DNA of 64,000 bases from Flavobacteriales bacterium (GCA_028110365.1 JAOGVT010000004.1:4926-68925); one strand, 5' to 3'; counted from the first letter of the stretch, positions 1 through 15,632 are shown. Translations and numbers: made by a program. Notes: a model not told the origin generated them from the letters alone.

Positions 1-1692
1 TAATTGATCTTTGTCAAAATAATTTAAAATTGTTTGTTCAGGATTTATCTTACCAATTGAAGTCCAATACTGTAATTTTCTGATTAGATATTCGCTATGT
101 GTCTCAATAATAAATTGTATAGAAAATTTGTTATTGGCATCGATAATTAAGTCTGCAAGTTTTGATTGAAGATCGGGATGTAGATTTGATTCTGGTTCAA
201 TTAATATTAGAATTGAACTAGAGTAATGAGGAGATTTGATACTCCGCCCAAAATTATCTTCAGCTTTAGATGTGATACTAATAAGTGTTTTTAGTAAAGA
301 TTGAAGCCCTCGACCGAATGAATCAATTCTTTTATTTTCATTAAATAATATACTAATTTTTTTATCTTCTTCTATTAATTTGAAGCTACTCCCATAACCA
401 AACTCATTTAACCAAAAATTTAAAAAGGAATACTCTATTGATTCTTTATGAAGATTTTTATTGTAAAGAGATTTTAATAAAAAATCTAAATTATTATCTC
501 TAGTAATATCTACTATAGTAGGCTTCTGAGAATTATTATTGTATATGATAAGTGGTTTTATAAACTCCACAACAATTGATTCAAAAATCAATTTGCCAAA
601 AAGTGATTTTGGAGAATGATCAATAAAATGAATTTTAGTGAGACCTTCTTCATCTAATTTATTATTTAAGTGATCCCAAAATTCATGAATAACAGAATGA
701 GAAGCTAATGATTCAAAATTAATGTCATTTACTCTGTAATGCATTGTCCCAGATAGATTAAAGCTTCCTTCAAGTTCTTGATGTCTTTTTTGGGCTATTT
801 TGTCAAAATACTCATTGTTGCTCTCATATATATTTTTATAGTCATAGATAGAAAATCCATATTCTTTATCATCTTTCATGTGCTCATTGATAAATACGCC
901 ATAGTCATAATAATCTATTGTCTGGGATGTACTGTTAAAAAATTCTACATTTTCGTATTTGTCATCATAAAATTCTGTTTTGTAATCATTATAAGTTGGT
1001 AAGCTTGCCATAAGTTCATGGAACCTCTCTTGATTTTCAATTTTTTCTTCGCTGTCCTTTTCTACATAAACTACCTTTCCGCCTATTGTCACTTCTTTCC
1101 ATTTTGTTGGGTCTAGATCATCTTTTTTCTTGTCAAATGAGGATTTTAATTGTTGTCTAACATGATTAAAAATGAAGGGTAAATTACAAAAGAATTTTGC
1201 GGTAGGTAATTCCCCACCTTCTTGTTCTTCTTCTCTAGGGGACTTTATAATTTGATTATCTTTTATCTCAAATATTAGTTCTTCATTCTCTTTATTTTTA
1301 GAGTCAATCGTAATATGTAAATACTTAATAGATTTCAGAAAACCATCTAGAGGATTAATAATTGATTTTTCAAAGGTAAATCGGATATGAAACAAATTTT
1401 CTTTACCAAAATATTTTAACGTACTTGGAAAAGTTAATACTATTTCTTTAGTTTTTGACTCATAATTTAGCGCCTTATCAAAAGAGAGGAATTTTTGTAA
1501 GCTAGAGAATTTTAACTTAGTAATTCCATTATTGCTCATTGATAATGAAAGAATTTCTATTAATTCAATTAAAGAAGACTTGCCGGCATTATTTTTACCA
1601 GTTAAGAGGTTGATGTCAGCAATTTTTATTGCAGTACTCTCTCTAAATCCTTTAAAATTTTTAATATATAAGTTTTCAAATATATATCCCAT
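1..1692 (-). CDS. ABC/SMC-like AAA ATPase (AAA_15/21-type with DUF3696-like tail); C-terminus cut by the window edge
   Basis: Absent from the ORF track because it runs off the window. I checked every codon of this minus frame from 1692 to 1 and found no stop. Hand translation gives MGYIFENLYIKNFKGF..LLTGKNNAGKSSLIE (Walker A), SFGRGLQSLL (signature-like), ILILIEPESNLHP (Walker B) and IIETHSEYL (H-loop). Confidence 0.75.
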   Translation of the reverse strand, partial: MGYIFENLYIKNFKGFRESTAIKIADINLLTGKNNAGKSSLIELIEILSLSMSNNGITKLKFSSLQKFLSFDKALNYESKTKEIVLTFPSTLKYFGKENLFHIRFTFEKSIINPLDGFLKSIKYLHITIDSKNKENEELIFEIKDNQIIKSPREEEQEGGELPTAKFFCNLPFIFNHVRQQLKSSFDKKKDDLDPTKWKEVTIGGKVVYVEKDSEEKIENQERFHELMASLPTYNDYKTEFYDDKYENVEFFNSTSQTIDYYDYGVFINEHMKDDKEYGFSIYDYKNIYESNNEYFDKIAQKRHQELEGSFNLSGTMHYRVNDINFESLASHSVIHEFWDHLNNKLDEEGLTKIHFIDHSPKSLFGKLIFESIVVEFIKPLIIYNNNSQKPTIVDITRDNNLDFLLKSLYNKNLHKESIEYSFLNFWLNEFGYGSSFKLIEEDKKISILFNENKRIDSFGRGLQSLLKTLISITSKAEDNFGRSIKSPHYSSSILILIEPESNLHPDLQSKLADLIIDANNKFSIQFIIETHSEYLIRKLQYWTSIGKINPEQTILNYFDKDQL

Positions 1693-1704
1693 AAAAATTC
1701 GACT

Positions 1705-1974
1705 TTACCCTTTTAATAGTTTTTGAATTCCTGAGTCACAACAAATAAATTTTGGGTGATTTTTAATTGCCGATTTCATTAACGAATCTAACATTATTTT
1801 TGCAGTTTCTCCAGTTGTTATTTTTAAATTTGAATAATCACTTCCGGCGTAAATAGCTTTATTTAAAGCTCCTGCTTTTGGAAGGGCAATAATTTTCTGC
1901 TCATTGTTTTTAAAGAATGCAAAATATAATCTATTGCCATCCTCCTTTACTTCTAATAGTTTTTTGTATCTCAT
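1705..1974 (-). CDS. hypothetical 89-aa protein
   Basis: ORF sits 12 nt upstream of the ATPase start and 3 nt after the preceding ORF. No motif recognised. Confidence 0.4.
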   Translation of the reverse strand: MRYKKLLEVKEDGNRLYFAFFKNNEQKIIALPKAGALNKAIYAGSDYSNLKITTGETAKIMLDSLMKSAIKNHPKFICCDSGIQKLLKG

Positions 1975-1977
1975 AAT

Positions 1978-2511
1978 TTATCTATATCCAGATTTCCAAC
2001 ATGCGTAACAATTCTTTTTTGATCTATTTCCTCTGAGTTTTTTATTACATCGATTGCAGTAACCGTAAGAGCTTGAATATCCAATTGATTTGGTGTTATT
2101 TGAATATCCAACGTAATGTTTTTGTTTTATTCTTCTATTTGCCTCAGCCATTGATATTCGTTCTATCTCCATTTTGTCTATCCCAACCCAAACTCTTCGG
2201 TCTTTACATCCATGTTTCGGGAATCCAAATGTGTATTGTACTCCATTGACGTAGTGATTTTCAAAAGTTCTGTATTGACCATCAATTAAGCTTAATCTAA
2301 TGCTCGGTTTACTAGATATCGATCTTGGTGAAACTGAAATTGATGATGGACTGTATTGACTCTTTCTATTTATTGAAGTAGTTGTTGAATTATATGTCGG
2401 TGTTACCTTATATGATGATGAAGTGCTGCTATAATTTGACGTACTATGAGTTGTAGAATTTAAGGATCCTATTATTGCAAAAATTATTATGAAAAAAATG
2501 ATGCCACCCAT
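1978..2511 (-). CDS. membrane-anchored Ser/Thr-rich protein with C-terminal CxxC...CxxC (zinc-ribbon-like)
   Basis: N-terminal TM helix GGIIFFIIIFAIIGSL, a long S/T-rich linker, and C-terminal YCNRCNKKLRGNRSKKNCYACW. Confidence 0.45.
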   Translation of the reverse strand: MGGIIFFIIIFAIIGSLNSTTHSTSNYSSTSSSYKVTPTYNSTTTSINRKSQYSPSSISVSPRSISSKPSIRLSLIDGQYRTFENHYVNGVQYTFGFPKHGCKDRRVWVGIDKMEIERISMAEANRRIKQKHYVGYSNNTKSIGYSSSYGYCNRCNKKLRGNRSKKNCYACWKSGYR

Positions 2512-2547
2512 TATATCTGTAAAGTTTTTTACAAATATTAGATGTTG

Positions 2548-2568
2548 TTACGCACTCATAATGCGTAA
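2548..2568. repeat. inverted repeat TTACGCA-N7-TGCGTAA (member of the YAYGCA-N7-TGCRTR family)
   Basis: Perfect 7-bp arms with a 7-nt spacer, lying between the CARF-HEPN stop (2577) and the next ORF start (2511). Confidence 0.6.
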
Positions 2569-2576
2569 TAGAGAAT

Positions 2577-3944
2577 TTAGTAGGAAAATTTATCAGAGTA
2601 AATAAATTCTTTTGTTTCTTCAATGCTTGAGTTTAGATTATTTAAAAGTTGGTCTACACTATATGGGTGTTCTATTGCGTGTGCAACAATAATTCTAATT
2701 TTATTTATCTTTTTAAATAAATTTACATAACCACTAAAAGTTGCTCTCTTTTTTAAAATTATTGGTATTTCATCGATAAGATCTTTTCTGCCCTTGAACT
2801 CAAGATATTTTTTTAACTCGTTTTGAACTTTATTTTGTTTTTCCTTATTGAATACTTTTTTCGCAAGTGATCTACTGAATTCATCTTTAGAATCTATGTT
2901 TAGACACTCACAAACTTTTGACACTATTGATTCACTCAGGCCAATTGCAGCATAACCATATGAGTGATTTTTTAAGTTCCAAACTGCAATTTCAAATTGA
3001 AAATGAGAATCATCTTTTGCATTTTTAAATAAATCAATAAATGATTTTATTGTTTTAGGAATAGTTAGTGATTGAAGAGGAGTGAGGTTATTTAACTGGA
3101 TTCCTTTAAGTTTAATAATTGATTGTTTTAGATTGTAAATATGGTTTAGTGACTTAGTGTTTGAAAAATCTTTAAGTAAGACACTAGCACTTTTACTTTC
3201 TTTTATTTCAGATAATATTTTTGAAAATAGATAAGCATTTCCATATTCAATGAATTCATGTGATGCTTTGATAGAATTATTTAAATCTTTGAGAACACCT
3301 AAGCTAACTATTGGGCTTATTCCATCGAGTTCATTACTAACTTCATGCATACCATATGTAATATCTTCAACACTAATGTTCTTTTTAATATGATCAACAA
3401 TAAAGTTAAGTACGTTTGTTAAGATTAGAGGTAGTGATCGAAATCCATGGGTAATATCTAGATAAAGTTGATCTCCACTTTGGATGTGATTTTCTATCTC
3501 AAAAAGTTGTTGAATATTGAATTGGTGCTCTTGGTTATTTAAACCGTATTTGATGATTACTGGCGCAATTTTTGAATTTTTAAATACTTCCTTAATAAAA
3601 TCTCCTTTATTTATATCTGTATTATGATTTGCTTGTTCAACATCATTTGATAATTTTTCCCAAACCTCTGATGATGGATTTTCAGTGTAAGAGTCGTAGA
3701 CCACATCCCACATTGCTTTTAGTGTTCCAATGTAAATAATCTTATCCGCTGAGTGGTGTTCCATTAAAGCGGTAGCGATAAATTCAGTCTCATACTTTCT
3801 ATTGTCAATCGAGTATAGAGTTTTTCTGTATTCACCTCTTGACTTATTAGATCGGTCAGCATATCCTCCGGTACCAATGAAGCTGATTATAATTTTTGCC
3901 ATTATTTTATGTTTAGAGAATAAATCTAATAAAAAATATGGCAA
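2577..3944 (-). CDS. Csx1/Csm6-like CARF-HEPN protein (TM1812/DxTHG family); likely true start is the ATG at 3902
   Basis: N-terminus MAKIIISFIGTGGY is typical of the TM1812-type CARF Rossmann start. It has the DxTHG motif LYLDITHGFRSLP and a C-terminal R-x4-H HEPN motif, NKIRIIVAHAIEH. Confidence 0.7.
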   Translation of the reverse strand: MPYFLLDLFSKHKIMAKIIISFIGTGGYADRSNKSRGEYRKTLYSIDNRKYETEFIATALMEHHSADKIIYIGTLKAMWDVVYDSYTENPSSEVWEKLSNDVEQANHNTDINKGDFIKEVFKNSKIAPVIIKYGLNNQEHQFNIQQLFEIENHIQSGDQLYLDITHGFRSLPLILTNVLNFIVDHIKKNISVEDITYGMHEVSNELDGISPIVSLGVLKDLNNSIKASHEFIEYGNAYLFSKILSEIKESKSASVLLKDFSNTKSLNHIYNLKQSIIKLKGIQLNNLTPLQSLTIPKTIKSFIDLFKNAKDDSHFQFEIAVWNLKNHSYGYAAIGLSESIVSKVCECLNIDSKDEFSRSLAKKVFNKEKQNKVQNELKKYLEFKGRKDLIDEIPIILKKRATFSGYVNLFKKINKIRIIVAHAIEHPYSVDQLLNNLNSSIEETKEFIYSDKFSY

Positions 3945-4095
3945 TCAATATTAATCACATGACTTGTTTGGATCTTTTAAACTTTTGCGATTATATTTTT
4001 TTTTATTCACATGGATATTTGTGCTATTTCTTACTGCATTAAATATTTCTTGCTGTTTGATTTTGATTTTTCTAAGTGACTTTTGATTCATGATA

Positions 4096-4803
4096 CTATA
4101 TGTCTAAGGTAATCTGAGTATTAGTATATCCAATATTATCGTATTTGTCAACACCTTGTTGAATGCTTTTAAAAACATTAACATCTTTGACGGCTTTATC
4201 AATAAGATTTGCTTTGCAAAGACTAATAAATAAAGCACATGCTTTTGCTTGACAATTAACTGATTTTGTCGGGTTGTATTCAATGTCTGAAAAAGCTGAG
4301 AATTTTAATAATTCTTCTCTTAATAATTTGTTTTCATTTAGAGCTTTTATGTAAATCCAATTATAAAAAAGTCCAGTTGGATTAATATCAAACTCTTGAC
4401 TATCAAATTCAAAACCTATGATTCGTCCTGATTCTTTTAATCTTATATCTTTTTTTATTTTGTAAGGATTCATAGAATACATATTGATAAACTGTCCACT
4501 TCTTTCAAATATCTTCCCTCCTTGATATGCACATTCTATCGGCATCATTCCATATTTTGAATGATTGATTTTCAAGTTAAATGCACTAAGTGAAACACCT
4601 AAAGGATTTTCAGATTTAGTAGAAATTTCAAGTACATTTTTTTCAGGGAATTCGGAGATAAAATTTTTGTGCAATGAATCAATTGATTTTCTTTTTTGAG
4701 ATACTGCAAACCCAGGATGCCAATTAAATTCAACCATTTTAGAATTGAAAAATTGGTGATCTCTATTAATGTCACTACTTATAAATATTGGTCTTTTAGC
4801 CAT
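4096..4803 (-). CDS. 235-aa partner of the DarT-like gene; possible NADAR-like ADP-ribose-processing domain (tentative)
   Basis: Lies 5 nt downstream of the ART-like ORF. The segment LSAFNL..(12)..PIECAYQGGKIF resembles the NADAR/YbiA motif FSNF...SEHYFQAQKF. The rest is unrecognised. Confidence 0.35.
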   Translation of the reverse strand: MAKRPIFISSDINRDHQFFNSKMVEFNWHPGFAVSQKRKSIDSLHKNFISEFPEKNVLEISTKSENPLGVSLSAFNLKINHSKYGMMPIECAYQGGKIFERSGQFINMYSMNPYKIKKDIRLKESGRIIGFEFDSQEFDINPTGLFYNWIYIKALNENKLLREELLKFSAFSDIEYNPTKSVNCQAKACALFISLCKANLIDKAVKDVNVFKSIQQGVDKYDNIGYTNTQITLDI

Positions 4804-4808
4804 AATTT

Positions 4809-5225
4809 TTAATTAAAAATTTTAATGTAATTAGGTGATATCTTTTGTGGTATTAGTATTTCGGCTTGATCGTCTCCATTATTAAATGCATTCCTCCAGT
4901 CATAATTAATAGTTGCTCTATTCGCTGCTGCATTTGTATCAGAATATAACACTCCATTATTATTAAGTATTGAATCATCTATTTGTAGCCAAACCAATTC
5001 CTGAATTGTTCCATCGTTTAAAACTCGATTAAGCATTTTATGTGAAGGTTTTAGAGCTAATCTCACATATGGTCCCAATCCTTTGTTGCTATCAAGATTT
5101 CTTGACAACTCATTTGAGCTTAGAATAGCATCAATATCATATTTAAATATGAGAGGCCAGGACAATAATCCATGTCTCATAATAGAATTTACATTTCTTG
5201 AATCGGTAAAATGATATAATGCCAT
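4809..5225 (-). CDS. miniature DarT-like (DUF4433-like) ADP-ribosyltransferase-fold protein
   Basis: It starts ALYHFTDSRNVNSIMRHGLLS, compared with DarT h-YH-h-T..NL.sI...GL. It has a central VLYSDTNAAA and a C-terminal QAEILIPQKISPNYI, matching the DarT catalytic-Glu block AE-h-L-h. At 138 aa it is shorter than canonical DarT. Confidence 0.45.
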   Translation of the reverse strand: MALYHFTDSRNVNSIMRHGLLSWPLIFKYDIDAILSSNELSRNLDSNKGLGPYVRLALKPSHKMLNRVLNDGTIQELVWLQIDDSILNNNGVLYSDTNAAANRATINYDWRNAFNNGDDQAEILIPQKISPNYIKIFN

Positions 5226-5265: not shown

Positions 5266-5284
5266 CACGCATTGAATTTGCGTG
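5266..5284. repeat. inverted repeat CACGCA-N7-TGCGTG (YAYGCA-N7-TGCRTR family)
   Basis: 6-bp arms with spacer ttgaatt, between the WYL gene stop (5293) and the DarT-like start (5225). Confidence 0.6.
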
Positions 5285-5292
5285 TTAGGAAT

Positions 5293-6327
5293 TTATTCTT
5301 TTTTGGTACTATTAATTATTGATTCGTATGAGTCTTTTGATAATTTAATTCTTTCAAAGAGTCGGTCCCTAAGATGAGTGGGCTCAATTACTTGAACTCT
5401 TTCTCCATATTGGAGAAGATGATTTTCAAGTTCGAAATTTATTTTAAGTTTTAATTTAACAATGGTTTCTCCTTGATTGTCAATGTAATATTTTTGAGAA
5501 GGATGAATAGGTTTTGTTTTTATATAGTTTAGCTGACTTTCATGAACTTTAAGTTTTATGATTTCTGATTCTGTATCTACTAAACTAACTCCTACGATTT
5601 CATAGAAATATTCTTCAAAGTCAATATTTGACTCAATAAATTTAATATCAATTTCATCAAATTCAGTAATTCTATCAAGAGGAAAAATACTAATCTCTCT
5701 TATATGTTGTTCACATTTTCCAATTAAAAACCAACGGTTATTATATTGTTTTAAAAAATAAGGATGACAAGTTAGTTGTTCAATTTTTTTAAAGCTGATG
5801 TTATACTTAATTGTAATAGGTCTCTTATTTACTATCTTATAATATAAGTCAGTGATTAAGTTAATATTATGTAAATCTATATTTTGTTCAAACCCAATAA
5901 TGTTATTTGCATTGTCATTTAAATTAAAAGTAGAATCAATTTTAACTATCATATCTTGTACCCACTCAAACTGCGGCAAGCCTTTAATTCTATTGAGTGT
6001 ATGGAGACATTCTTTTAACTGGTCTTTTTCAAGTTCAGTGATAGGCTTTATATATATCGACATGCCTTTTTTCGCATATCTAAAGGTTTTTTTATTTCTC
6101 TTAGTATAATTATCTAGTTTTTTGTCTTCAATTAGCTCGATTTCATAGTAACTCTTCATGTATTTTATGTCATCTTGTAATTGACGCAGTTTTACTTGGT
6201 GGCCATATTCACCCAGCACATTATTTAACTTTTCAAGTAAATCATCGTATGAATATTTTACATTGAAATTAGAAAAACATTCATCAAGTATTTTGTATCT
6301 GAGCTGTGCATTTTTATTTGTAGCCAT
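5293..6327 (-). CDS. WYL-domain transcriptional regulator (HTH + WYL + C-terminal WCX-like)
   Basis: The block ITIKYN...CHPYFLKQYNNRWFLIG...IFPLDRI is typical of WYL domains. The N-terminus LRYKILDECF resembles a wHTH. The protein is 344 aa. Confidence 0.75.
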   Translation of the reverse strand: MATNKNAQLRYKILDECFSNFNVKYSYDDLLEKLNNVLGEYGHQVKLRQLQDDIKYMKSYYEIELIEDKKLDNYTKRNKKTFRYAKKGMSIYIKPITELEKDQLKECLHTLNRIKGLPQFEWVQDMIVKIDSTFNLNDNANNIIGFEQNIDLHNINLITDLYYKIVNKRPITIKYNISFKKIEQLTCHPYFLKQYNNRWFLIGKCEQHIREISIFPLDRITEFDEIDIKFIESNIDFEEYFYEIVGVSLVDTESEIIKLKVHESQLNYIKTKPIHPSQKYYIDNQGETIVKLKLKINFELENHLLQYGERVQVIEPTHLRDRLFERIKLSKDSYESIINSTKKE

Positions 6328-6392: not shown

Positions 6393-6417
6393 AAGTATGC
6401 AGATTTAGTGCATACTT
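6393..6417. promoter_or_regulatory. perfect palindrome AAGTATGCA-N7-TGCATACTT in the divergent promoter region of the WYL gene; candidate operator
   Basis: 9-bp perfect arms located 66-90 nt upstream of the WYL start and 43 nt upstream of the 6460 ORF. Confidence 0.45.
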
Positions 6418-14432: not shown

Positions 14433-14451
14433 TATGCATTGAATCTGCATA
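14433..14451. repeat. inverted repeat TATGCA-N7-TGCATA (YAYGCA-N7-TGCRTR family)
   Basis: 6-bp arms with spacer ttgaatc (the 5266 copy has ttgaatt). It lies between the HIRAN gene stop (14478) and the 273-aa ORF start (14386). Confidence 0.6.
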
Positions 14452-14477: not shown

Positions 14478-15632
14478 TTATGTATATAATCCAGAAATTA
14501 ATTTAAGAAATTCAATGTCTTTGCTTTGATCATGCTTTCTAGATATTAATATTTTCTTTGGAGAAGTATTGTTGAAGTAGATCCTACCTGATGGGTCTCC
14601 TGATCCACTTGAATCTTGTGTCATTTTATATCTACACTCATGATAATTTCTTGCTTTTTTTATTTTTTTCCTACCCTCTAGTAGTTCTTGATTCTTTTGA
14701 ATATTAATAATTGTTTTGAAGATTATTATCTTTTCTTTTTCATCACATTCACATGCAAATTTTATTGAGTCTCCAAGGAATTCTATATTATTACAAACCC
14801 CTTTAATTGTAGTTTCAAATTGTGAGACAATTTTCTTTTTTAATTTTTCTCGTTCTTTTTTAAATTCTCTTTCTATTACCTGTTTCTCATCTTTTAATAA
14901 CAGCGTTTCTTTTTTTATTTGATTGTCTTTCGATTTTAATGCACTATCATGTTCTTTAATAATACTGTCAAACTCCTCATCTCGATCATATATTCCGAAT
15001 TTGTTTTTTATGAGTTCATAGATTCTATCTGTACTATTGTACTTATCTTCAGAGAATTCAATTTTTATTAACCAATAATACTGTACACCGGAATTAGATG
15101 GCATTGTCGGAAATGAAACATCTAAAACTTTAACCTCAATATCTTCTAAATAATTTACTATGTCATCTTTAATTTTATCGTTTGAGTTTAAATATAAATA
15201 GTAATTATTATTAGATCTTTCAAAATGACAAACAATAGGCATCTCTTGATGGCTTATGTTGATAGATTCATCATGCTTTATAATAATTGATAAGCCAAAT
15301 ATCTTTCCATATAAATCTGTGTTTATTTTACATATTTTCGCTTTACAACTACATTTATTGTCTCTTAATTCTGGGGCTAATTTTTGAGCTATATTTTTTG
15401 GTATATATCCAAGTGATTTATCATTATTTCTTTTAACATGAATTGCATTTTTATCATGAATATTATTTTCTTCTATACTTAAATATACAGTTTCATTTAT
15501 CCTGCATAGTTTTATGTTATCACCTCTTCTATTATGTTGAGTTCCAATAATATTAATTGGAGTTGATACATAATTTGACTTATCTTCTTTATAAAAGTAT
15601 TTAGTAATCAGTCTATATATCTTTTTAAACAT
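14478..15632 (-). CDS. HIRAN-domain protein with coiled-coil middle and unknown C-terminal domain
   Basis: The block IIGTQHNRRGDNIKLCRINETVYLSIEENNIHDKNAIHVKRNNDKSLGYIPKNIAQKLAPEL fits the HIRAN pattern (G.q....g....L.re..N..D.nAi.V......lGyip...A..l). A K/E-rich coiled coil spans aa 225-265. The tail RIYFNNTSPKKILISRKHDQSKDIEF vaguely resembles RelE/Gp49. Confidence 0.55.
   Translation of the reverse strand: MFKKIYRLITKYFYKEDKSNYVSTPINIIGTQHNRRGDNIKLCRINETVYLSIEENNIHDKNAIHVKRNNDKSLGYIPKNIAQKLAPELRDNKCSCKAKICKINTDLYGKIFGLSIIIKHDESINISHQEMPIVCHFERSNNNYYLYLNSNDKIKDDIVNYLEDIEVKVLDVSFPTMPSNSGVQYYWLIKIEFSEDKYNSTDRIYELIKNKFGIYDRDEEFDSIIKEHDSALKSKDNQIKKETLLLKDEKQVIEREFKKEREKLKKKIVSQFETTIKGVCNNIEFLGDSIKFACECDEKEKIIIFKTIINIQKNQELLEGRKKIKKARNYHECRYKMTQDSSGSGDPSGRIYFNNTSPKKILISRKHDQSKDIEFLKLISGLYT

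Follow-up and report, generated by a model that had tools for sequence, protein, structure and literature searches.

The gene with which this study is concerned encodes a Csx1/TM1812-type CARF-HEPN RNase and lies near the start of a 64,000-nt stretch of DNA from a Flavobacteriales bacterium (G000:C34:4926-68925, hereafter the window), the source of which is a metagenome-assembled genome (MAG) of 1.23 Mb in 67 contigs, 57% complete. In our preferred interpretation, to which we assign a probability of roughly one half, this gene and the ABC ATPase cassette beside it are separable cassettes in a single WYL-controlled island, where the RNase awaits a Cas10-type cyclic oligoadenylate (cOA) supplied from elsewhere and the ATPase and its phospholipase D (PLD)-like partner act alone. 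On the minus strand, the left end of the window reads WYL-WCX, DarT, NADAR, a 46-aa open reading frame (ORF), CARF-HEPN, a 65-nt gap, a 177-aa gene, an 89-aa gene and the ATPase gene. A first-pass annotation, made from the sequence alone, had described the last four of these genes, and they were found where it had placed them, separated by gaps of 65, 3 and 12 nt; to its gene list we add the 46-aa ORF upstream of the CARF gene and a 335-aa partner gene to the left of the window.

The CARF-HEPN gene (2577-3902, minus strand, 441 aa) was assigned by profile matches and invariant motifs. The CARF, DxTHG and HEPN assignments of the first-pass annotation, failure of which in profile searches had been named as speaking against a new system, were borne out by strong matches, those to NCBIfam and Pfam exceeding the cut-offs: the PADLOC model CARF2--CARF_HEPN was matched over the full length (E = 5.4e-98, model positions 1-392 of 393), while NCBIfam TIGR02221 cas_TM1812 scored 126.5 bits (cut-off 76.25), TIGR02549 DxTHG 35.8 bits (cut-off 21; motif D149-I-T-H152-G) and Pfam Csx1_CARF 28.9 bits (cut-off 24.7). 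Like the Csx1/TM1812 RNases, the protein has at its N-terminus a CARF domain that bears the DxTHG and TM1812 signatures, continues through a helical region and ends in a HEPN domain carrying the R-x4-H motif (R403-IIVA-H408). Residues D149, H152, F154, R155, S156, R403 and H408 were retained without exception across an alignment of 21 sequences and in every type III-linked or clade A/B row (100%; see below) of a second alignment of 107, and G10, G59-T60 and M64-W65 were also invariant or nearly so in both. The closest solved structure was the Csx1 part of Marinitoga sp. Csx1-Crn2 (8Y75, E = 5.8e-12), an RNase activated by cyclic tetraadenylate (cA4) (PDB 8Y75/8Y7G), whose catalytic residues R401 and H406 (PMC11317161) correspond to R403 and H408 here, although the window protein lacks the Crn2 fusion. 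The 455-aa frame reported earlier opens at a TTG codon (3944) and is probably too long; since all homologues in the alignment start at a MAK/MSK methionine, the likely product is the 441-aa protein beginning at ATG. With dN/dS ratios of 0.087 against the relative in L090 and 0.167 within clade B, the gene is intact and under purifying selection, and appears to be functional.

As a whole, the CARF family proved to be an ordinary type III accessory. Among 80 relatives of 29-40% identity taken from species-representative genomes, a Cas10 homologue was located within 10 kb of the CARF gene in 61 loci, and a Cas10 palm was present somewhere in 44 of the 49 genomes tested, the five exceptions being MAGs with the CARF gene on a short contig. 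More similar relatives (P0012, P0014; 45-50% identity) directly follow RAMP or Card1 genes of type III loci, and in these loci Cas10 retains the GGDD motif. The earlier suggestion of a CARF-containing module of a different, undescribed kind is not supported by the nature of the wider family. In the phylogenetic tree, clades A and B, to which the ATPase-linked CARF sequences belong, each received a Shimodaira-Hasegawa-like approximate likelihood ratio (SH-aLRT) support of 100 within a 14-row clade supported at 96, and were nested among type III-linked sequences. The clade-specific changes R23G, S153G and W210x, in which the window clade departs from most of the family, were common to it and its type III-linked relatives in the 21- and 107-sequence alignments. 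A change of ligand was also considered and set aside, as no change at conserved CARF positions was specific to the ATPase-linked clades. Every CARF family is known to include genes without linkage to CRISPR-Cas (PMC4012209).

No CRISPR array was detected in the window or in the 1.23-Mb assembly; three repeat matches in the genome proved to be tandem repeats within coding sequence, their periods being 78 and 108 nt, and were rejected as arrays. Cas10 was not found in the assembly by TIGR02578, by PF22335 or by a custom hidden Markov model (HMM) built from 67 Cas10 sequences, and homologues of all proteins of the related type III locus L007, among them RAMP, Cas6, Cas1, Cas2 and Card1, were likewise missing from it. 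The assembled sequence held no SMODS cyclase (CD-NTase), Pfam scans of 29 island ORFs returned no cyclase domain, and no cyclase-like domain was recognized by Pfam, PADLOC or NCBIfam profiles in the ATPase, the partner, the 177-aa or the 89-aa protein. The protein studied here was the only CARF protein in the assembly, its gene was absent from all of 60 relatives, and a Cas10 palm was lacking in all 17 genomes searched from the same bacterial family, seven of them of high quality. The earlier observation that no CRISPR, cas or cyclase gene lies nearby is therefore in agreement with the searches of both window and assembly. The gene is likely an orphan within its genome, 43% of which is unassembled: a whole-genome search for type III systems and cyclases, as had been proposed, came back empty for the assembled part, which at 57% completeness falls short of proof.

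Comparison of related loci revealed that the CARF gene and the ATPase cassette are separable, each occurring without the other. The window and L003-5 share the order DarT-NADAR-46aa-CARF-177-89-ATPase-partner, and L090 (CARF 79%) has PIF1-like helicase-CARF-183-89-ATPase. The CARF gene is missing from L095-97 (175-89-ATPase-partner) and from L098 (DarT-NADAR-44aa-ATPase-partner), the latter also being devoid of the 177/89 pair, as well as from the distant genome G135 of the same order (WYL-ATPase-partner-like). Conversely, L006 (CARF 55% identical) carries CARF-PDC-M16A-(split M16B)-46aa without the ATPase. The L099/L100 loci read CARF-PDC-M16A-PDC-M16B-44aa-ATPase-partner, the identity of the two PDC-M16 genes between CARF and ATPase in L099 being given by E-values of 1e-243 and 1e-189. 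In clade B (L091-93, L101/102 and L107; CARF 46-47%), CARF comes last (ATPase-partner-CARF); the genes are 2-3 nt apart or overlap, and an integrase or a DpdF-like helicase gene lies downstream. The ATPases of clades A and B were 41% identical over the C-terminal half and their partners 36% (E = 2e-50), and the lineages carrying the CARF gene differ by approximately 50% in sequence. The first-pass annotation had supposed that the CARF protein may be partnered with the ATPase and had asked for conserved linkage to the three downstream genes. Relatives of the CARF clades do adjoin one and the same rare pair of ATPase and partner, in either of two gene orders; the linkage to the three genes, however, is not obligate in either direction, and the 177/89 pair goes with the ATPase and not with the CARF gene. 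Because the clade A loci all occupy a single chromosomal hot spot and were counted as one observation, the independent evidence for linkage amounts to two arrangements.

The adjacent genes also differ in divergence. Between the window and L090, the number of synonymous substitutions per site (dS) was 1.44 for the CARF gene, 0.59 for the 177-aa gene and 0.39 for the 89-aa gene, and between the window and L095 it was 1.37 for the ATPase and 0.38 for the partner, with dN/dS of all genes in the range of 0.09-0.32. Since the dS values of neighbouring genes thus differ two- to four-fold, their histories differ as well, and the block appears to be a recombination mosaic.

A shared regulatory element was suggested by the palindrome AYGCA-N7-TGCRT, of which four matches were found in the window against 0.11 expected, at 2550-2566, 5267-5283, 6397-6413 and 14434-14450. 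The first lies in the 65-nt gap (2512-2576) that separates the CARF gene from the 177-aa gene, the second upstream of DarT, the third in the promoter of the WYL gene itself, and the fourth upstream of a 273-aa gene. It stands ahead of nearly all defence cassettes in this island. Among relatives, the motif precedes WYL, DarT and the 44-aa ORF that comes before the ATPase, and in L006 and L099 it is found upstream of the CARF gene as well. In type III loci that carry a WYL gene it also precedes the Cas10 operon, as in L007 and L094, and in L007 it adjoins WYL and Cas1 (positions 342, 7948, 11830 and 17762 in L007, 186 in L094, 9912 and 15143 in L006, and 2692 and 7924 in L099). A WYL gene is located directly upstream of the ATPase in L091 and G135. 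The palindrome is thus a candidate for, and probably represents, a common WYL operator, and we infer that the WYL regulator binds it. Each cassette would then carry the same operator, so that in related bacteria the regulon would include a complete type III system. Marking the borders of cassettes, the palindrome may also be the site at which they are swapped.

The 65-nt gap contains, in addition to the palindrome, a promoter-like AATATTTG box, and both are kept upstream of the 175/181-aa gene in the CARF-less loci L095 and L096, where one arm change of the palindrome is compensated. The CARF gene of the window has no operator of its own. A terminator scan revealed no terminator-like site in the region, and a sigma-70 scan was uninformative (44 promoter-like sites versus 40.7 expected). 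The CARF gene is probably the last gene of a DarT-NADAR-46aa transcription unit, and the four genes downstream appear to form a separate unit having its own operator and promoter-like box. The earlier description of the CARF gene as heading an operon that ends in the ATPase conflicts with this conserved gap.

The ATPase (1-1692, minus strand) is NsnB-like, and the first 564 of its 610 aa are encoded in the window; as had been noted, the gene continues leftward, ending 141 nt beyond the window start at G000:C34:4785. It matched the Pfam families AAA_15 and AAA_21 and, at its C-terminus, the DUF3696 tail (26.5 bits, cut-off 22), and its best PADLOC match was NsnB (4.9e-33), ahead of AriA (6.6e-14) and GajA (7.6e-13). 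The partner gene, its product read as PLD-like from a fold match and an HDR motif, was indeed found to the left (C34:3778-4785, 335 aa, wholly outside the window), where it overlaps the ATPase stop by 1 nt and is followed by ordinary-looking flank genes of 199, 274, 197 and 258 aa. The view of the ATPase as a defence ATPase with a partner there therefore held good; a Septu/PARIS/Gabija-style ATPase with an HNH or TOPRIM partner did not, as NsnB was a far better match and the partner is PLD-like.

The partner sequence family has no match in Pfam, PADLOC, NCBIfam, PHROGs or the sequences of the PDB. Its AlphaFold2 (AF2) model (predicted local distance difference test, pLDDT, 71.5) shows alternating beta and alpha elements in a Rossmann-like arrangement at residues 1-118 and a separate C-terminal domain. 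A Foldseek comparison of the model with the PDB gave phospholipase D as the best match (probability 0.99, E = 3e-3), although with a TM-score of only ~0.3. The H263-D264-R265 motif and acidic residues were invariant in an eight-sequence alignment. On the basis of the model, the C-terminal domain is predicted to be a PLD/MIT_C-like effector with an HDR motif. The family is also rare: a search of 5.8 billion proteins yielded 8 clusters, metagenomes 3 loci, and 401 genomes of the order one clear and one remote match.

Comparison with L003 revealed an uneven divergence, in that the CARF proteins were 95% and the partners 93% identical but the ATPases only 46%; the ends of the ATPase (L003 12211-13959) were conserved, and the middle ~270 residues were almost unrelated. 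Such hypervariability would be expected where a sensing surface experiences diversifying pressure, and this middle domain probably does the sensing. The contrast between the two middle domains resembles allelic replacement of the probable sensing domain.

The ATPase-partner pair shares with Menshen an ABC ATPase having a DUF3696 tail; the overlapping gene that follows would, by its predicted fold, resemble NsnC in encoding a two-domain protein with a Rossmann-like N-terminal domain and a PLD/MIT_C-like HDR domain. The NsnC protein of Menshen consists of an inactive-PIN-like N-terminal domain clamped by the DUF3696 tails and a nuclease-type C-terminal domain, one effector class of which is PB-PLD1 with an HDR motif (PMC12065111). 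Like the PB-PLD1 variants, the partner has the HDR motif and a conserved acidic residue, the likeness being one of predicted fold, and it matches no NsnC, PADLOC or Pfam model. In contrast to Menshen, the genome gave no match to NsnA (ParB-DUF262, PF03235), and neither did the island ORFs; depending on the locus, the upstream slot is occupied by the WYL regulator, the 44-46-aa ORF, the 177/89 pair or CARF-HEPN. As the defining NsnA is absent from the genome, the pair appears to be Menshen-like rather than Menshen. With PARIS (AriA-AriB), Septu (PtuA-PtuB) and Gabija (GajA-GajB) it has in common the AAA_15/AAA_21 ATPase class, and the likely common logic is that a nuclease is held or controlled by an ATPase oligomer as long as no infection has been sensed (PMC12065111). 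It differs from these systems in that the partner is PLD-like instead of Toprim/DUF4435 or HNH, that no helicase is present, and that the AriA and GajA matches are far weaker than NsnB. The CARF-HEPN gene, in turn, differs from type III Csx1 genes in having DarT-NADAR and a Menshen-like cassette as neighbours in place of cas genes, with no array or Cas10 in the assembly. A CARF sensor amid non-CRISPR defence genes with no cyclase in sight recalls other CARF proteins outside CRISPR loci, such as those encoded beside CoCoNuT type IV restriction systems (PMC11090510); the known non-CRISPR CARFs, however, are mostly RtcR-like CARF-ATPase-HTH regulators or Can-type nucleases, whereas the protein here is of Csx1 type with its nearest relatives in type III loci. 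A pairing of CARF-HEPN with a Menshen-like pair was not described in the papers searched.

In the mechanism that we favour, the CARF lineage would have departed from a type III CRISPR-Cas locus to become one cassette in a variable, low-GC anti-phage island. A cyclic oligoadenylate, most likely cA4 by analogy with the closest solved relative, would bind the CARF dimer and unite its two R-x4-H motifs, whereupon the HEPN domain would cut RNA non-specifically and thereby bring about dormancy or abortive infection. Considering that the ligand-side residues match those of relatives encoded beside a Cas10 with intact GGDD, the signal is most likely a Cas10-made cOA acting in trans, whose origin would be the 43% of the genome left unassembled or a different replicon in the same cell. 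The ATPase and its partner would constitute a Menshen-like, ATPase-gated nuclease devoid of the NsnA sensor, with the ATPase middle domain serving as sensor. The CARF gene and the ATPase cassette would thus be neighbours with shared regulation, often co-inherited, neither of which requires the other.

Several observations weigh against this interpretation. The assembled 1.23 Mb holds no Cas10, other cas gene, array or SMODS cyclase, so that the source in trans is assumed and not seen, and all 17 genomes searched from the bacterial family lack a Cas10 palm. The rare partner lies within ~5 kb of the CARF gene in seven of eight distinct clade A/B contexts, and clade B keeps the order ATPase-partner-CARF with 2-3-nt gaps or overlap in two different surroundings, one of them by an integrase. 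Furthermore, the divergence of the CARF protein and that of the partner follow the same three-level pattern. The missing Cas10, the nearness of the rare partner, the clade B order and the parallel divergence favour a functional tie. On such a reading, the NsnB-like ATPase with its PLD partner would have drawn CARF-HEPN into a composite, CRISPR-independent system under the WYL regulator. The three proteins would function jointly, CARF-HEPN being a second, fail-safe effector or standing in for NsnA, and the ligand would come from the module itself or from the phage and not from Cas10. We hold this as a tentative alternative. It would account for two sister CARF clades standing beside the same rare pair in different gene orders, for the tight clade B operon, and for the true homology of ATPase and partner between the clades; in addition, the CARF gene of the window fills the upstream slot held by NsnA in Menshen, and the genome has neither cas genes, which are also missing from the bacterial family, nor NsnA (DUF262). 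However, cassette and CARF gene are each found alone, an operator and promoter-like box separate them in the window, and in L099 a whole other candidate system, PDC-M16, intervenes. That the CARF signature residues agree with those of type III-linked relatives speaks against a new ligand; no cyclase-like domain was seen in the ATPase, partner, 177-aa or 89-aa proteins, and with clade A counted once the independent support consists of only two arrangements. That the locus forms a three-part immune module, made up of a Menshen-like ATPase, a PLD-type effector and a captured Csx1-type RNase under the WYL regulator, seems to us rather unlikely.

The absence of a cOA synthase from genome and bacterial family, together with strong purifying selection in a cas-free setting, would also fit a CARF-HEPN protein that acts alone on a ligand not made by Cas10, for instance a nucleotide from a phage or from another island module, with the ATPase cassette unrelated to it; such ligands have been proposed for CARF proteins outside CRISPR loci (PMC11090510). 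We regard this as improbable, given that the protein is of Csx1 and not of RtcR type, that it agrees in its conserved residues with relatives encoded next to an active Cas10, that its closest solved relative is activated by cA4, and that the genome is only 57% complete. A decaying, functionless leftover of a lost type III locus hardly deserves credence: no cas genes were found and the hot spot turns over fast and contains gene relics, yet the frame is intact with all catalytic and signature residues retained, the dN/dS values (0.087 against L090, 0.167 within clade B) are those of a constrained gene, and the gene persists across lineages ~50% diverged in sequence.

To our knowledge, CARF-HEPN RNases have been understood only as receivers of Cas10-made cyclic oligoadenylates. 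Here, strong purifying selection maintains one CARF-HEPN lineage where a type III system is missing from the locus and possibly from whole bacterial families. If the signal does come in trans, as in the interpretation that we prefer, the locus would exemplify type III accessories surviving as free cassettes in defence islands. Joint action with the ATPase pair would instead mean that a CARF effector is activated by a new route and that a variant of Menshen has had its sensor exchanged; in the case of a three-part module, the CARF ligand would be made or released without Cas10, or the Csx1 RNase would be switched on via the ATPase. The NsnB/NsnC-like pair without NsnA and with a hypervariable ATPase insert is a side result useful in itself, and one operator for type III operons and unrelated defence cassettes would offer a way to define a WYL-controlled defence regulon.

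With regard to the surroundings, the GC content is 27-30% across the first 36 kb of the window against 34-40% beyond, and Pfam scans of the island ORFs revealed that defence genes crowd these first 36 kb. They include ARPP-1, TPR and CHAT genes, a HIRAN gene, a PD-(D/E)XK gene, an ADP-ribosylglycohydrolase, two Dcm methylases, McrBC and a GHKL-Z1-DUF4420 trio. Upstream of the CARF gene, all on the minus strand, lie the WYL-WCX transcription regulator (5293-6327; Pfam WYL and WCX, PADLOC WYL 1e-26), a DarT-like gene of 138 aa (4809-5225; Pfam DarT 2.1e-16), a DarT1-associated NADAR antitoxin (4096-4803; Pfam NADAR-DarT1 1.7e-82) and, read from the sequence, the conserved lysine-rich 46-aa ORF (3951-4091). 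The DarT-like protein covers positions 1-165 of the 201-position Pfam model, and the same mini-DarT was found again in L003, L098 and G004. Neither the CARF gene nor the 335-aa partner had a relative in the viral contigs, and a phage or prophage origin of these two was dropped for that reason.

The 177-aa protein (1978-2511, minus strand) has an N-terminal transmembrane helix, a Ser/Thr-rich linker and a CxxC-x12-CxxC zinc ribbon; the linker is variable, and the near-invariant C-terminal domain is beta-rich and ends in the zinc ribbon. Its gene was never found apart from the 89-aa gene and the ATPase (dN/dS 0.19-0.25), and the 89-aa gene (1705-1974, minus strand; dN/dS 0.23-0.26) is always paired with it. 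Neither protein belongs to a family in Pfam, PADLOC, NCBIfam or PHROGs, and the AF2 model of the 177-aa protein was too poor to search with (pLDDT 41.6). Both would be lineage-specific accessories of the ATPase unit. The 46-aa ORF was recovered by tblastn at 74-100% identity in L003, L006, L098 and L099; this 44-46-aa ORF, with the consensus MN(K/Q)..KIKIKQQEIF..RNSTN.H.NKKKYNRK, travels with the cassettes and stands directly upstream of the ATPase in L098 (7992-8126) and L099 (8003-8137), the L006 copy being at 15222-15362.

The hot spot was also traced in a 95%-complete genome of the same genus (G004:C28, ~203.4-204.4 kb; L113/L114), in which the 274-aa flank gene is kept at 80% identity and where, right beside it, the only trace of the cassette is a relic of the partner 3' end, 35 codons long and interrupted by an in-frame stop. 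This site appears to be the same hot spot from which the cassette was deleted and which has other island content (a WYL gene and a DarT-NADAR pair further off). PIF1/RecD-like helicases and the TOTE-type pair consisting of a helicase and DUF7017 (PADLOC candidate PDC-M16) recur by this CARF clade (L006 11341-15087; L099 4121-7868; L098 2087-5864; L007 13863-15209 and 20355-21329; L090 585-1934; L104 6902-8266). Their recurrence in cas-free islands and type III loci alike suggests that helicases are a second habitual neighbour of these Csx1 genes. The clade B trio, finally, is followed by a tyrosine-integrase gene (L091 9823-10386) or by a 1449-aa DpdF-like helicase (L107 4077-8423), and its three genes apparently travel together on mobile DNA.

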